Shown in pieces: positions 3,127-58,898 of a stretch of 64,000 nt of DNA. Numbering within the stretch: position 1 is the stretch's first letter; every line of letters begins with the position of its first letter. The stretch lies in assembly GCA_000165345.1 (NCBI GenBank), contig CM000436.1:320001-384000 (forward strand), in the 5' to 3' direction. Both the position numbers and the translations under genes were made by a program. The notes beneath the pieces were generated by a model, which saw only the letters and a list, made by a program, of their open reading frames with translations, made no database searches and was not told the origin of the DNA.

Positions 3127-4059
3127 TTATTTTTCTAAAGCTTTCTTAATTTCATCATATAATATTAGTACAAGTGCTCCACCTGTTCCTCTTAGTACAT
3201 TTGATAATGAACCTTTAAATAATGCTCCAACTCCTTCTTTTCTAATAATCTTTTTCAAACAATCATAAGCTCCAGTATATAAAACATCTTTCCCTTTCTT
3301 ACCAGCCATCATCATCATTCTTCTACGAATAGTATCAAATGGATAACATATTATACCAGCACTAGTTGTAACAGTTTGTGCAATTATCCATTTATAAAGC
3401 ATATTTTCTTGTTTCTGATTCTTAAAAAACATTTCTTTTGTTGTGTCATATAATCCAAAATAAGCTGCTCTATATACAAAAATTCCTTGTATTGATACAA
3501 AAAATCCTTGATATAAAGATCTAATACCACTTTGTTTTGAAATCTTCATAATGCAATCAAACATTCCCTTAAATTCTTTACTTCCATTCTTACCAATATC
3601 AGTAGCTAATCTTGTTCTTGCAAAATCTAATGGATAAACTATTCCAGAAGATGCAGCACCAGCCAAACCACCTGATAACATATTAACACCAAAAAATTTC
3701 CAGAAATCTGATTCTTTATTATAACGTGGCATCATATCTCTTATCATATCTTTAAATGCAAATCCAAATGCTTGTGTTGGAAAATATCTTATTACATTAG
3801 TTGTATTTCCTCTCCATAAACTTAATATTCCCTGTTCTTTTGATACTCTTCTTAAACAATCAAATATTCCAGCATATCTAGGAATTAAACCTTTAATAAT
3901 ATCTGGATTTGTATCTTGAGTTTGTAGAAGAAGTTTAACTCTTTCTATTGGTGCAACAGCTGTCTTACTAATTGTGGCAGAAATTCCACCTACAATAAAA
4001 TCTGTAAGGAAATTATTTTTTTTCTTTTTATTTTGTTTTTCTTCTTTTTTATTTTCCAT
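3127..4059 (-). CDS. AAC: Mitochondrial-carrier-family ADP/ATP translocase (AAC-like), with a Lys-rich N-terminal extension.
   Basis: Tripartite mitochondrial carrier repeats are present, including [10 protein letters not shown] and [10 protein letters not shown]. The AAC-specific signature RRRMMM occurs in [12 protein letters not shown]. The ORF track starts at a TTG at 4098; the first ATG (MENKKEE...) is at 4059 and gives about 310 aa, typical for AAC. Confidence 0.8.
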
Positions 4060-4340: not shown

Positions 4341-4352
4341 TTTTGGCGGGAA
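4341..4352. promoter_or_regulatory. E2F-like site TTTTGGCGGGAA upstream of the ADP/ATP carrier gene.
   Basis: Exact match to the canonical E2F core TTTGGCGGGAA, about 280 bp upstream of the ATG at 4059. Confidence 0.5.
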
Positions 4353-4424: not shown

Positions 4425-6802
4425 TTAATTAGTGCAATATATTTCTTGTGCTGGAATAAGTTCATAATTAGCTCTATATTTTAAATATGCATTTTGACGA
4501 TGACTATTCCATGTTGTTGGAGCTTCTTGTATATTATCGGAAATTATTGTTTGATTATTAGAATTATTTATTCCTGTATTATTTGAATTAATAATATTAG
4601 AAAATGCAATTCTTTGTGCAATTAATGGTAAAATTTCATTGAGAGTTTCAATGAGTGGTATAAAATAGTCTAAAGTTAGTAAATATGTTCCATTACTTAA
4701 TCTTTTAGAATCAAAATTATCAAAATCAAATGATTCATAAGCCATTTGCATTGTTCTCCAGCCTGGAATGGTGTACTTACCATCAAACCATCCAAATGGA
4801 CCCATTTTGTTTTGTTCAGTAATATACCATCTTTGATCATATTTATATGTAACATTTGGTGCAATACAATGATTCATAACTTTAGTAATATTTGAAACTC
4901 CTTTATCATAATTTTTATCTAAATATGTGCTTTTTGGTATTAATAACCTTTTATTCATTAATTTTTGTGCGTGTAAATACTGTTGCTGGTTTTGCATGTT
5001 TTTCATTGATACAGATTTTGTAGTCTTGACTGTTTTCACTGGTGATTTTGTTGTTACTATTGTCACTCTTTTTGTAGTGGTAGTAGTTATTATTATAGGT
5101 TTTTTGGTTGTTGTTACTGTAGGTTTTCTAGTTGTAGTAGTAACTATTGGTTTTCTAGTTGTGGTAGTAGCTGTAGGTTTCTTAGTTGTGGTAGTTGCAA
5201 CTATGGGTTTCTTAGTTGTGGTAGTTGCAACTGTGGGTTTCTTAGTTGTGGTAGTAGCTGTAGGTTTTCTAGTTGTGGTAGTAGCTGTAGGCTTCTTAGT
5301 TGTGTTTGTCGTTCCAATGGGTTTCTTGGTAGTAGTTGTGTTAGTTGTCATTGTGGTTTTCTTAGTTGTGGTTGTAGTTCCAATGGGTTTCTTGGTAGTA
5401 GCTGTATAAGTTGCCACTGTGGGTTTCTTAGTTGTGGTTGTCGTTCCAATAGGTTTCTTGGTAGTAGTTGTATTAGTTGCCACTGTGGGTTTCTTAGTTG
5501 TGGTTGTCGTTCCAATAGGTTTCTTGGTAGTAGTTGTATTACTTGTCACTGTGGGCTTCTTAGTTGTGGTTGCCGTTCCTATGGGTTTCTTGGTAGTAGT
5601 TGTGTTAGTTCCCACTGGCTTTCTTGTTGTTGTTGTTGTTGTTGTAACCGTAGGTTTCTTAGTAGTTGTAAAAGTTGTAGTATTTAATGGTTTTGTTTCT
5701 TTATTTATTTTATCAATAGAACTTTCTTTTTCATTCAATGTTTCATCTCTATCTTTTTTAGTTAAAGATTCCAAAAAACTATTTAACCCATCCATAATTG
5801 TTGAATCACCAGAATTTGTATCTTTATTTGATTCTTCCTGTTGCATTTCTTCCTGCTCAAGTTCTAATTCGCTACTCTCTGAATCTTCAGTATTTGTTTC
5901 CTCATTACTGGTATCTGAATTGGTAACATCTGCAGAAGAAGAAGAAGAAGAAGAAGAAGTAGAAGTAGAAGTAGAAGTAGTAGTAGTAGTCATCTTCGTC
6001 GTTGTCGTCGTTGTTGATTGATTTTTTGAAGATATTGGCCTTTTTGTATTTGTAACACTTATTTGATTTGAAATATGAACCTTTTTTTCATTGTTACTCG
6101 ACATTTTGTCAATATTGTTACTTTTCGAGCTTTCAAATTGATTGTCTATTGTATTGCTACTTACAACTAAAGGCTCTTTATCTCCAATATATCTAACGAT
6201 TGTATCGTTAAAGTTAATTGGTTGGTAGTAAAGATGATCGTTAATTATTGGATTTTTAGCATTAAACCATTTAATTCCCATATTTGTATTAAAAAAAACA
6301 ATTCCTGCAATTGGGTAACTCATTATCAATGGTATTACATATTTTTGAGTAATACTATTACTATGAGTAACTACAACAATCTTTCTTGTTTCAAATTTTA
6401 AACAATTATTTACAAGCCAAAATAAAAATGATGAACTTGAAATTGTTTCAGACTTATTTCCAATTTTCGAATTAGTTAATTTTCCAGATTTTCCATAACC
6501 TGGTGGTGATACTGCTGCTACAGTAAAACCATTCTTATAAGCTTCATCTAATACTTTTGATTTTAACCAAGTATCCGCTATTAATTTTCCAATAAACAAA
6601 ACTAAACCTTTTTCTTCACTCTGATCTTGCTTCATTAATACTATTTCAATATCTAATTCTGATGAACAAGATAAAATTTGAGTTTTTGTAGTTATTAATG
6701 ATTTTGTATTTTTTGTTATACTATTAGATGTTTGTACTTTATCATTATTTTCATAAATATTACTTTCAATAAATATATTATTTGTATCATATGATGAAAA
6801 TA
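4425..6802 (-). CDS. Secreted or membrane mucin-like glycoprotein, main exon. It has an alpha/beta-hydrolase-like N-terminal domain, about 17 tandem copies of an 11-aa Thr-rich repeat (TTTTKKPxxTx), and a Cys/Trp-containing C-terminal domain.
   Basis: This is a 796-aa ORF. The N-terminal part resembles an alpha/beta-hydrolase core: LVLFIGK...GFTVAAVSPPGYGKSG and VVVTHSNS at the nucleophile-elbow position. The centre is a Thr/Lys/Pro O-glycosylation-type repeat encoded by a 33-nt tandem DNA repeat. A probable upstream exon is joined through a 70-nt GTAAGT...TTTTAG intron (see the 6873-7272 feature). Confidence 0.6.
5090..5670. repeat. 33-nt tandem repeat, about 17 imperfect copies, encoding the Thr-rich mucin repeats.
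   Basis: The plus-strand unit is GGTTTCTTAGTTGTGGTAGTAGCTGTAGGTTTT-like and repeats head-to-tail. It explains the spurious antisense poly-Val ORFs at 4927-5409 and 5419-6021. Confidence 0.9.
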
Positions 6803-6872
6803 CTAAAATAATCATTAGTTAAATTAAAAAAAAAAAAATTTTCAATTAATTTTAATATTAAATTAAACTTAC

Positions 6873-7272
6873 CTAAAGATTGATAATAAAAATAACTAAA
6901 AATTGCTGGTACAAATATAAAAATTAATGTCAATATACCATTCAATTGTCTTAACTTTTTTCCTCTATGCGATTTTGGTTTTATACATGTTTTACCAATT
7001 ATCCAAGAAATGCCCCATGATATGATTGGAAAACCAAAAAATCCCATAAAAAATAATACTACTTGTATTCTATCTCGCTTATATTTTGTTCTCAGTAATG
7101 ATTTAGATGTTTTTCTTTGAATTATTTCCAGTATTGTTGTATTACTGTCCGTTAAATGATAATAATCATTTTTATCTCCAATATCAAAGTTCTCAAGTTT
7201 TTTATCTTCCTTATTATGCTCTATATTTAATTTTAAATTTTCAATATTATTTTTTCTATTTTCAGTGACCAT
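6873..7272 (-). CDS. Probable exon 1 of the mucin-like gene. It encodes an N-terminal segment with two hydrophobic helices (signal anchor).
   Basis: This is a 161-aa ORF on the same strand, starting with ATG at 7272. Its tail overlaps the ATG of the downstream ORF in another frame. A consensus donor CTTTAG|GTAAGT lies at 6873/6872 and a poly-T tract plus TTTTAG acceptor ends at 6803. Splicing joins ...YYQSL to VFSSYDTNN... in frame (phase 1). E2F-like and GCATGC motifs lie 180-260 bp upstream, at 7452-7526. Confidence 0.5.
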
Positions 7273-7451
7273 TTATTATTATTATTATTATTATTTTCCT
7301 TCAAGTTTTTTTAATTATTAACTTAATTTTTCTTCTTCAATTAAAAAAAAAAACAAGAATAAAAGAAAATCTTTTTTAGTTACTTAAAATATTAATGTTA
7401 TTGTATTTGTTGTCCACATAAAAAATGCATTCGTAATTTTACTTGCAATTT

Positions 7452-7526
7452 TGCATGCATGTAAAAAATGACGTAATTAGTTATTTAATAAAAGAAATTT
7501 TTGAGTGTGCCGGACCCTCCCGCCAA
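7452..7526. promoter_or_regulatory. Promoter motif cluster upstream of mucin exon 1: TGCATGCATG, TGACGTAATTAG and TCCCGCCAA (E2F-like, reverse).
   Basis: The motifs are read directly at 7452-7461, 7468-7480 and 7518-7526, 180-255 bp upstream of the ATG at 7272. Confidence 0.5.
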
Positions 7527-7656
7527 TTCCACTACCAAGTAATAAATCAAATAATAAGAAATTATAACAAATAATTAAAAAAAAAAAGAAAAATGAAAAG
7601 AAAGAAAAGATAGAATGACCCAAGAAATATATATTTAAAAAATAAAATCAAAATTT

Positions 7657-44374: not shown

Positions 44375-44397
44375 CACGTCATTTTTGCATGCATGCA
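44375..44397. promoter_or_regulatory. ACACGTCATTT and TGCATGCATGCA in the convergent spacer after the calpain gene.
   Basis: Read directly. The motifs lie downstream of both flanking genes. Confidence 0.3.
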
Positions 44398-45789: not shown

Positions 45790-54210
<8,421 letters not shown>

Positions 54211-54305
54211 CTTCAACTAATTTGCAAACTTCTTCCTCCTTTTTCCTTTTCCTTATCCCATATAATCCTCTTACCTAAATTTTCACTGCTTGACTTTGCC
54301 AAATG

Positions 54306-54696: not shown

Positions 54697-55779
54697 TTAC
54701 TCCGATAATTTTGATCGGATAACCTTTATTAACCACTTCTCGATATCTACAATACAGTCAATTTCGAATCTCTTTTGATCCTGCTGCATTTGCATGCAAA
54801 ATGTATTCCACTCTGATTTTGATTCTTGAGAAATCTCATTTGAACTCATTAGTCTGTTTCTGGTATTAATTATTCTCGAAATTTCATCTTGTGTAATATC
54901 AAAAACATTATATGTAGCTATTAGCTCGTTCTCTATCAACTTCGAAACAGGAGGAACTTTAATTGGCAAAAGTTTTGGGATACTAAAACTTGAATCATAC
55001 CAAGTGCCTGATTTACCTCCCATTATATACGTTGCTGCTATTGAAAGTCCAAAACAGTCGTAATCGCATAGAATCCAGAACTTTGTATCTTCTGGAAGAT
55101 CTTGACTTAGTCTGTATAGTAAAGTCCTAGTAGGTAGATCCGAAAATCCTCTAGCTGTAATTAATATACAAGAATTATCAAACTCTTTATGAAATCCAAA
55201 TTCTAAAAGTCTTTGGAAAATAGTATCCTTTTCAACAACCAAAACAAACTTGATCTTTGAATAGTAGCTAAACTTTAAACCATTCATACCCTTGAATAGA
55301 TAAGGACTTATCGAATGCCCCATACTTTCAAAAATGGACATACAATCCAATCTAACCTCTCTTCTTCTTTCACAAAATCCTATTTCGTATCCTTGAATTA
55401 TCAAAGGACCTCTTATCCTCCCTCTAGCTGTGGAAACCACGTTCAAAAGTTCTCGAGGAGTCTGTACTAGATGAGTTACTTGTGCAATATATTTGTCTGA
55501 AATACTTTGTTTTGTATATAAACTCGGATTATTATAATAAATATCTCTTAAAGTCGAATGGAAGCCTTCCTTGACATTTCTATGAAGAATATTCATAACC
55601 GAAACCAAACAAGTTGAATTGTAAATTTGACTCCTACTTCCTCCATTTATTAACTCCCTTATTATGCTACATACTGAACTTTCCAAACGACTTGTAATTC
55701 TTTTATCTTCACCTTCTAAAACAAGAAGCTTATCCTTACTTTTACCTCTCTCAATCAAATTCCTCTCTTCTTGCACCAT
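54697..55779 (-). CDS. SPO11: SPO11 / topoisomerase VI subunit A homologue (meiotic DNA double-strand-break transesterase).
   Basis: The catalytic tyrosine context STLRDIYYNNPSLY matches RDI(F/Y)Y. The Toprim region FVLVVEKDTIFQRL (acidic metal ligand), ILITARGFSDLPTRTLLYRL and ILCDYDCFGLSIA (DxD) is colinear with yeast Spo11 IVIVEKEAVF / LITGKGFPDFLTRLFL / FTDADPYGISIA. Confidence 0.8.
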   Translation of the reverse strand: MVQEERNLIERGKSKDKLLVLEGEDKRITSRLESSVCSIIRELINGGSRSQIYNSTCLVSVMNILHRNVKEGFHSTLRDIYYNNPSLYTKQSISDKYIAQVTHLVQTPRELLNVVSTARGRIRGPLIIQGYEIGFCERRREVRLDCMSIFESMGHSISPYLFKGMNGLKFSYYSKIKFVLVVEKDTIFQRLLEFGFHKEFDNSCILITARGFSDLPTRTLLYRLSQDLPEDTKFWILCDYDCFGLSIAATYIMGGKSGTWYDSSFSIPKLLPIKVPPVSKLIENELIATYNVFDITQDEISRIINTRNRLMSSNEISQESKSEWNTFCMQMQQDQKRFEIDCIVDIEKWLIKVIRSKLSE

Positions 55780-56040: not shown

Positions 56041-56092
56041 TTGCATGCAAAACTCCTCATTAATAAAAATTGGTACACCAAACTTTGGCGCC
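56041..56092. promoter_or_regulatory. TTGCATGCAA and TTTGGCGCC in the divergent SPO11 / 56638-gene promoter.
   Basis: Positions are 56041-56050 and 56084-56092. Confidence 0.5.
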
Positions 56093-58780: not shown

Positions 58781-58898
58781 TACACGTAATTAACTTGTCA
58801 GATTTTTTTTTTTTTGCTATTCAATTTTTATCTTGCATGCACTTAGACTGTAAAAATTTGCATGAATTTGGCGCCTATTTGGCTTTGCCACGTCATTG
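58781..58898. promoter_or_regulatory. Promoter of the SLC35 transporter gene: TACACGTAATTAAC, TGCATGCA, TTTGCATG, TTTGGCGCC and CACGTCATTG.
   Basis: Positions are 58781-58794, 58844-58851, 58857-58864, 58867-58875 and 58889-58898. Confidence 0.5.

Follow-up and report, generated by a model that had tools for sequence, protein, structure and literature searches.

Introduction

The Cryptosporidium glycoproteins gp900, gp40/15 and CpMuc4/5 carry threonine-rich tandem repeats that are O-glycosylated and whose length is polymorphic among isolates, and they are secreted, glycosylphosphatidylinositol-linked or type I proteins with signal peptides. Proteins of the ABHD14/CIB type are alpha/beta hydrolases, and ABHD14A also has an N-terminal membrane anchor. 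Here, a two-exon gene of Cryptosporidium parvum that shares features with both groups is described. It is located on the minus strand of a stretch of 64,000 nucleotides (nt) of chromosome 8 (GenBank assembly GCA_000165345.1, contig CM000436.1, positions 320,001 to 384,000 of the forward strand), hereafter called the window, to whose first letter all positions refer. An earlier reading of the window from its letters (the original prediction) had joined an open reading frame (ORF) of 161 amino acids (aa), ORF1, to a downstream ORF of 796 aa through an intron of 70 nt, and had proposed a membrane-anchored mucin as the product.

The window is AT-rich, with a G+C content of 28%, and the proteins it encodes have their best matches in Cryptosporidium. 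The DNA around the gene is 100% identical over 8,848 nt to GenBank CP029787.1, chromosome 8 of "Cryptosporidium sp. 43IA8", an isolate which is named C. parvum IIa-IOWA 43IA8 in PMC12092579. The gene model is already known, as it is present in its exact form in GenBank and is common to the annotations of at least six species. The result is thus mainly a quality control, in which a base-exact gene structure read from sequence alone agrees with curated RNA-seq-based annotation. It also has practical consequences, because models that lack the anchor-encoding exon would mislead the prediction of localisation, the design of tags and knock-outs, and counts of "secreted mucins".

Gene Structure and Deposited Models

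The region is read as one protein-coding gene of C. parvum chromosome 8 with two minus-strand exons and a phase-1 intron of 70 nt, to which we assign a probability of about 0.93. The coordinates of all features are shown in Table 1. The spliced coding sequence has 2778 nt and no internal stop, staying open for 925 codons across the junction ...YYQSL|V(G+TA)FSSYDTNN, which is the in-frame join that had been proposed. The intron is in phase 1 because exon 1 has 400 nt, and in-frame TAA codons lie immediately upstream of the ATG at 7272. ORF1, with its two hydrophobic segments, and its overlap of 29 nt with the start of the 796-aa ORF in a different frame were found where the original prediction had placed them, and its two-exon model proved right to the base, both in its product, identical to WKS79371.1, and in its coordinates, which are those of the gene deposited in CP029787.1.

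Table 1. Positions in the window of the two-exon gene, its splice signals, the putative promoter block and the predicted protein segments.
Feature	Position	Strand	Remarks
Putative promoter block	7452..7526	minus	upstream of exon 1; putative promoter function
E2F-like TTGGCGGGA	7526-7518	minus	in promoter block
CRE-like TGACGTAATT	7469-7478	plus	in promoter block
Palindromic TGCATGCA	7452-7459		in promoter block
ORF1	7272..6787	minus	161 aa
Exon 1	7272..6873	minus	400 nt; codons 1-133 and first base of codon 134
Hydrophobic segment 1	6994..7068	minus	aa 69-93, IQVVLFFMGFFGFPIISWGISWIIG; Kyte-Doolittle 19-residue mean 1.5-1.9
Hydrophobic segment 2	6874..6945	minus	aa 110-133; Kyte-Doolittle mean 1.5-2.0
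Intron	6872..6803	minus	70 nt, GT-AG, phase 1, 9% GC
Donor GTAAGT	6872-6867	minus	G|GTAAGT after CTTTAG; GT at 6872-6871
T13 run	6838-6826	minus	inside intron
ACTAAT, branch-site-like motif	6819-6814	minus	inside intron
ATG of the 796-aa model	6815..6813	minus	within intron; overlaps ACTAAT motif; ATA in C. tyzzeri
796-aa ORF	6815..4425	minus	frame different from ORF1; 29-nt overlap with ORF1
Acceptor TTTTAG	6808-6803	minus	intron end
Exon 2	6802..4425	minus	remainder of codon 134 to stop at 4427-4425
Alpha/beta-hydrolase-fold domain, ABHD14/CIB type	6171..6680	minus	aa 175-344; T-H-S-N-S nucleophile-elbow-like motif
Low-complexity linker	5013..6017	minus	Ser/Thr run aa 396-423; acidic aa 424-507; Thr-rich TTTTKKPx repeats aa 508-730
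Conserved C-terminal domain	4428..4913	minus	aa 764-925; motifs C.AP, GPFGWFDGKYTIPGW, YF.PL...L, IYC

The identity of WKS79371.1 (43IA8) with the predicted 925-aa protein was established by exact-sequence comparison. The gene deposited in CP029787.1 spans 2848 nt, exactly 7272..4425, and encodes 925 codons, so that an intron of 70 nt is required. The same junction is used by eight further deposited models from six species, including KAL5366852.1 and QOY39873.1 (CPATCC_003927) of IOWA-ATCC. The others include models of C. meleagridis, C. felis, C. bovis and C. ryanae and that of another C. canis assembly, the gene range exceeding the coding sequence by 81 nt in C. bovis and by 68 nt in C. ryanae. 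The IOWA-ATCC annotation, which includes this intron, was manually curated and, according to its authors, every one of its introns is supported by RNA-seq (PMC8744675); from this published statement we infer that the intron is spliced in vivo.

The splice signals agree with a U2-type GT-AG intron, showing an extended donor consensus, a T-rich tract, a branch-like motif and an AG acceptor, together with a conserved position and phase. The donor following CTTTAG and the TTTTAG acceptor were located at the places that had been predicted for them. The poly-T tract is likewise present, with 13 nt instead of the 12 claimed, at a distance of 23 nt upstream from the AG and not adjacent to it. The donor at 6872-6867 is the sole GT with the full consensus in ORF1; two further copies of GTAAGT occur unspliced within exon 2 (6164-6159 and 4780-4775). 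Two other lines of evidence were considered and rejected, namely in-frame joining as evidence in its own right and the rarity of GTAAGT, for the numerical reasons given below. On the sequence data, we take the discriminating evidence to be the full consensus donor together with conservation in orthologues, the arithmetic of the frames being insufficient by itself.

The 2004 Iowa II model (XP_627029.1, EAK89340.1, Q5CW90) is identical to the 796-aa ORF of the window at 6815-4428 and was deposited as a single exon, Q5CW90 being labelled as an "uncharacterized protein with threonine repeats". The Iowa II gene is probably cgd8_1220, because the adjacent carrier is cgd8_1210/Q5CW91 (PMC7730227) and cgd8_1220 has been described as an indel-prone "hydrolase" (PMC7718795), that is, one prone to insertions and deletions (indels). 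Literature searches with XP_627029, EAK89340, Q5CW90 and CPATCC_003927 gave no match.

Conservation of the Junction and Alternative Readings

Orthologous DNA was compared from six species, C. bovis, C. ryanae, C. canis, C. muris, C. andersoni and C. tyzzeri. In all six, tblastn matched the exon-1 peptide (E 1e-24 to 1e-86) ahead of the exon-2 homology, mostly in a frame different from it, and in each of them the homology ended at G|GTAAGT or, in the two gastric species, at G|GTATGT. The introns of these six species are in phase 1, are 62-80 nt long (71 nt in C. tyzzeri), are more AT-rich than exon 1 and end with an AG just before the homology resumes. When C. parvum is included, the intron lies at the same residue and in the same phase in seven species, and the protein alignment is unbroken across the junction. 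In six of these species the intron disrupts the reading frame, the exception being C. canis, whose intron (L003, 4440-4508) has 69 nt, is stop-free and is in frame.

Between C. parvum and C. tyzzeri the identity was 97.5% in exon 1, 98.4% in exon 2 and 93.0% in the intron; the corresponding values were 97.5%, 97.0% and 90.5% between C. muris and C. andersoni, and 77%, 67% and 60% between C. parvum and C. canis. Indels were confined to the intron in these three species pairs. Exon 1 showed no indels with respect to C. tyzzeri, and its substitutions were distributed as 3/1/6 over the three codon positions, a coding-type pattern. The ACTAAT motif of C. parvum is kept in both C. tyzzeri and C. canis. 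In C. tyzzeri, C. canis, C. muris and C. andersoni, the AG follows an ACTAAT or ACTTAA-like motif at a distance of 12-25 nt. The introns of C. bovis (L001, 4455-4534) and C. ryanae (L002, 4446-4513) have an A-rich acceptor, ...ACAAAAAAAAG (...AAAAAAG), with no pyrimidine tract, whereas the acceptors of the remaining five species are T-rich.

These comparisons bear on the possibility of two independent genes, each with its own transcripts, in which a 161-aa protein with two helices (7272-6787) would be followed by a 796-aa threonine-rich protein starting at the ATG at 6815. The single-exon deposit XP_627029.1 agrees with such an arrangement, and automatic callers on Logan genomic contigs also call the 161-aa and the downstream ORFs separately. 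In the Logan assemblies the only contigs with the 161-aa read-through ORF were genomic ones of 8.7 kb, on which the adjacent kinase gene lies as well. However, C. tyzzeri, with 98% identity, has ATA in place of the ATG at 6815, and there is no room for a second promoter because the ORFs overlap by 29 nt. The conservation of ORF1 is lost right after the GTAAGT, the remaining tail varying in frame and length from species to species, whereas homology crosses the junction in every species and a distant homologue carries the anchor and both domains in one chain. Furthermore, the two ORFs are joined in the curated, RNA-seq-based annotation. Two separate genes are therefore considered very improbable.

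A start downstream of the junction, at Met 197 of the spliced protein (MKQDQSEEKG...), would leave exon 1 and about 60 codons of exon 2 untranslated or non-functional. Two deposited models begin there, P0002 (666 aa) and P0011 (694 aa), corresponding to the C. tyzzeri model and to C. parvum WRK33870.1. This residue is nevertheless W or L in the other aligned Cryptosporidium, the stretch before it, with QILSCSS.LD.E, shows conservation at the protein level as far as C. muris and the distant homologues P0017 and P0019, and exon 1 is conserved throughout the genus with a substitution pattern of coding type. We regard this start as the least probable of the alternatives.

Regulated splicing was also considered, by which a retained intron would give a 161-aa protein consisting of the hairpin, since the unspliced frame stops at 6787, while the spliced messenger would give the 925-aa protein. 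The retained-intron frame is open for 28 codons. Read-through ORFs of 162 and 163 aa (P0013 and P0014) from other sequencing runs show length polymorphism of the intron near the T run and the next bases, and the variants of different isolates (161, 162 and 163 aa) differ by whole codons; the stop-free, in-frame intron of C. canis points in the same direction. Conversely, the tail carries a frameshift in C. tyzzeri and is broken up by stop codons in C. bovis, C. ryanae, C. muris and C. andersoni, and the whole-codon pattern may be an artefact of selection, because the proteins were retrieved for clustering with the read-through ORF. A retained-intron product as a genuine second output is unlikely, although less so than the two preceding alternatives.

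Several observations weigh against the single spliced gene and the anchored protein derived from it. As many as 94 GT..AG pairs, counted as bare pairs, join both frames without a stop, and GTAAGT occurs at a chance rate in the window (22 copies versus 24.4 expected from shuffles). The evidence for the junction 6873|6802 consists here of DNA and deposited models. The C. canis model P0001 includes the intron as coding sequence and gains 23 residues by it, because this intron of 69 nt is stop-free and in frame; the model of the second C. canis assembly (P0027) splices it. Exon 1 is omitted in XP_627029.1, in WRK33870.1 and in the models of C. tyzzeri, C. muris and C. andersoni. Finally, hydrophobic segment 1 is strongly basic on both flanks, and therefore the topology, the lumenal facing of the threonine-rich part and its access to glycosylation are ambiguous.

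With regard to the two gastric species, the models CMU_025150 (C. muris) and cand_021930 (C. andersoni) lack the membrane-anchor region, yet this region is present upstream in the DNA (L004, ~3300-3945, and L005, ~3350-4000, respectively), so both models look truncated. In these species the anchor region is split by at least one extra intron of ~66 nt in phase 2 (SQDK-I|QLVF..., GTAAGC...TTATTAG; ~3618-3684 in L004), and one or two further small 5' exons probably precede it (...KKKER|GTAAGT...TAATAG|).

Upstream Region and Neighbouring Genes

The original prediction had placed the promoter motifs upstream of 7272 and not upstream of 6815. The motifs were found within the block at 7452-7526, the TGACGTAATT element being on the plus strand, and nothing comparable fits upstream of 6815 because this position is inside the intron. 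They are motifs that we take to be E2F-like and AP2-type Cryptosporidium promoter elements. In C. parvum the exon-1 ATG is preceded by GGCGGG at 252 nt, ACGTCA at 202 nt and GCATGC at 186 nt. GGCGGG and ACGTCA stand at nearly unchanged offsets in both C. tyzzeri and C. canis; for GCATGC, an exact copy at the kept offset was found in C. tyzzeri only, and C. canis has the degenerate ACATGCAA. In the window, GGCGGGA occurs 6 times versus 0.2 expected, and TGCATGC 18 times versus 2.9 expected. Further TGCATGCA sites, besides that of the promoter block (7452-7459), are found at 68-75, 44386-44397 (double), 51763-51770, 54791-54798, 56042-56049 and 58834-58841.

The gene order at the locus is HECT ligase, mitosomal ADP/ATP carrier, two-exon gene, protein kinase and DNA polymerase epsilon. 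C. tyzzeri, C. muris and C. andersoni show synteny for all five genes, and the order of the last three is the same in C. canis, C. bovis and C. ryanae, the contigs of which stop shortly downstream. Another E2F-like site, GGCGGGA (within TTTTGGCGGGAA), is located at 4345-4351, between the stop at 4425 and the start of the carrier gene cgd8_1210 at ~4098, and presumably belongs to the promoter of the latter. The spacer of 326 nt must accommodate both the 3' end of the two-exon gene and the carrier promoter.

Elsewhere in the window, an ORF of 2808 aa (45790-54216, minus strand) contains, close to its C-terminus, very long low-complexity tracts rich in Gln and His, which explain a compositional anomaly at 46-48 kb (GC 0.36, AT skew -0.34).

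Features of the Predicted Protein

According to the proposed model, transcription would start downstream of the conserved promoter block at ~7450-7530. Exon 1 would encode a conserved basic N-terminal tail and two hydrophobic segments, the extremely AT-rich U2-type intron of 70 nt (6872-6803) would be removed, and exon 2 would carry the frame on. The 925-aa product would consist of a membrane-embedded hydrophobic hairpin, an ABHD14/CIB-like domain, a variable low-complexity linker and a cysteine-containing C-terminal domain, and the linker would have grown into threonine-rich, mucin-like repeats in the intestinal Cryptosporidium.

No signal peptide was detected in the 925-aa protein. Segment 1, with many Gly, Pro and aromatic residues, is conserved in all orthologues and may be a re-entrant hairpin. 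The 15 residues before it hold 7 positive and 1 negative charges, the conserved basic loop KPKSHRGKKLRQLNG that precedes segment 2 holds 7 positive and 0 negative charges, and the 20 residues after segment 2 hold 0 positive and 3 negative charges. As judged from the primary structure, this charge pattern would be compatible with a lumenal C-terminal part only on condition that segment 1 is not membrane-spanning. Our best guess is that the N-terminal tail and the loop are cytosolic, with segment 1 re-entrant and segment 2 acting as a type II signal-anchor, which would leave the hydrolase-like domain, repeats and C-terminal domain on the outside. Four cysteines conserved out to the coccidian homologues may hint at an oxidising compartment. 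The "membrane-anchored mucin" of the original prediction is plausible, its anchoring being predicted from the hydrophobicity of both segments.

The term mucin is used on compositional grounds, and O-glycosylation is predicted. The stretch aa 508-730 contains 49% Thr in tandem TTTTKKPx units, as in the Ser/Thr/Pro-rich repeats of mucin-type O-glycoproteins, and Tandem Repeats Finder gave periods of 27, 30, 66 and 114 nt over 5070-5666. The length of the repeat region varies among C. parvum isolates, with proteins of 925 aa (43IA8/Iowa II), 922 aa (KAL5366852.1) and 883 aa (IOWA-ATCC), in agreement with the indels reported for cgd8_1220 (PMC7718795); part of this difference could be due to assembly collapse of repeats. 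The proteins of C. muris and C. andersoni (400-414 aa) lack the linker, as do the coccidian and distant homologues; the threonine-rich stretch is a lineage-specific insert in an older protein.

Conserved Domains and Protein Family

Pfam searches gave no family above threshold for the proteins of C. parvum, C. muris, C. bovis, C. meleagridis, C. felis and three distant homologues; Abhydrolase_1 reached 11.7-14.2 bits (E 0.035-0.2), below the cut-off of 25.8 bits. For the C. meleagridis protein a precomputed match is on record to PF27509, a family outside the Pfam copy searched. With the repeat-free C. muris protein as query, exhaustive HMMER searching gave 16 representatives at E<=1e-3, some of them distant homologues of higher G+C content. 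The homologues share an N-terminal and a C-terminal domain around a variable linker. Motifs of the N-terminal domain are G.V.F.GK, ISPPG.G, TV.VSHSN, G.VLFNT.MG..W and DH..Y.P; those of the C-terminal domain, which is kept from Cryptosporidium to Cyclospora and other distant homologues, are C.A.P, LGPF.FF.GKYK.PGW, EYF.PL...L.EFL and IYC. In the distant homologue P0018 a hydrophobic N-terminus with two segments and a basic loop directly precedes the same two domains, and the architecture of anchor plus domains is therefore older than the genus. The Cyclospora cayetanensis homologue P0025 is named "tubulin delta" by its source and shows internal deletions with respect to P0020 and P0022; it is probably mis-named and mis-modelled, or a fusion.

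Structure prediction from a seven-row alignment of Cryptosporidium sequences alone gave a mean pLDDT of 32. When distant homologues were included, AlphaFold modelled only the N-terminal domain confidently (pLDDT 80-93, residues 10-145 of the C. muris orthologue). Foldseek against the PDB returned 240 matches at E<=1e-3 and the 50 listed were all alpha/beta hydrolases, among which the best target-normalised TM-score was that of the CIB-like 3bdi (0.52). The best PDB sequence match in a profile search was 1imj_A, CIB/ABHD14B (E=0.0095), with the PPG.G motif and the S-x-S-x-S-type elbow aligned. Alignment by hhalign with a manually entered ABHD14B sequence gave a probability of 82% over beta3-beta6 only and did not extend the fold match to the C-terminal domain. 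The predicted model thus shows the beta-alpha-beta core of the fold, of which the N-terminal half is confidently modelled.

The T/S-H/Q-S-N-S motif after strand beta5 is invariant in Cryptosporidium. In distant homologues the last elbow position is bulky, and in P0021 the elbow Ser is replaced by Gly. No catalytic His was conserved at the usual place in the alignment of Cryptosporidium and distant homologues; an invariant DH dipeptide is present between beta6 and beta7. Since no catalytic His was found and the elbow Ser is not universal, enzymatic activity is uncertain.

We tentatively propose, as a possibility that is for now rather doubtful, that these proteins constitute an undescribed apicomplexan family with members in Cryptosporidium, Cyclospora and further distant relatives, in which a membrane-anchored ABHD14-like protein, possibly a pseudo-enzyme without the catalytic His, is combined with a conserved cysteine-containing C-terminal domain and has received, between these two parts, a mucin-like threonine stalk in the intestinal Cryptosporidium. 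The stalk may split the hydrolase fold, as the YF.PL...L..FL helix resembles the final beta8-alphaF element. The family with hairpin anchor, ABHD14-like domain and C-terminal domain is uncharacterised, and the mucin insert is found only in the intestinal species; if the proposal is true, an old housekeeping membrane protein has been turned into a polymorphic surface glycoprotein.

Comparison with Known Systems

The gene described here has the same exons, intron and junction as WKS79371.1, QOY39873.1 and KAL5366852.1 (925, 883 and 922 aa, respectively). Its product is identical to WKS79371.1, and the isolates differ in repeat length only. XP_627029.1 corresponds to the same locus, but lacks exon 1 and starts at the intronic ATG.

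The protein resembles gp900, gp40/15 and CpMuc4/5 in having threonine-rich tandem repeats of the kind that is O-glycosylated in those proteins, and a repeat length that is polymorphic among isolates. Unlike them, it has an N-terminal hairpin in place of the signal peptide and membrane attachment described for these glycoproteins, as well as conserved globular domains. Moreover, its repeats are absent in the gastric species and its glycosylation is putative.

With the ABHD14/CIB proteins (1IMJ and 3BDI) it shares the S/T-x-S-x-S elbow pattern and the PPG.G motif. In contrast to ABHD14, it has an additional conserved C-terminal domain and a long linker, its Abhydrolase_1 score is below the cut-off, and no catalytic His was identified in it.

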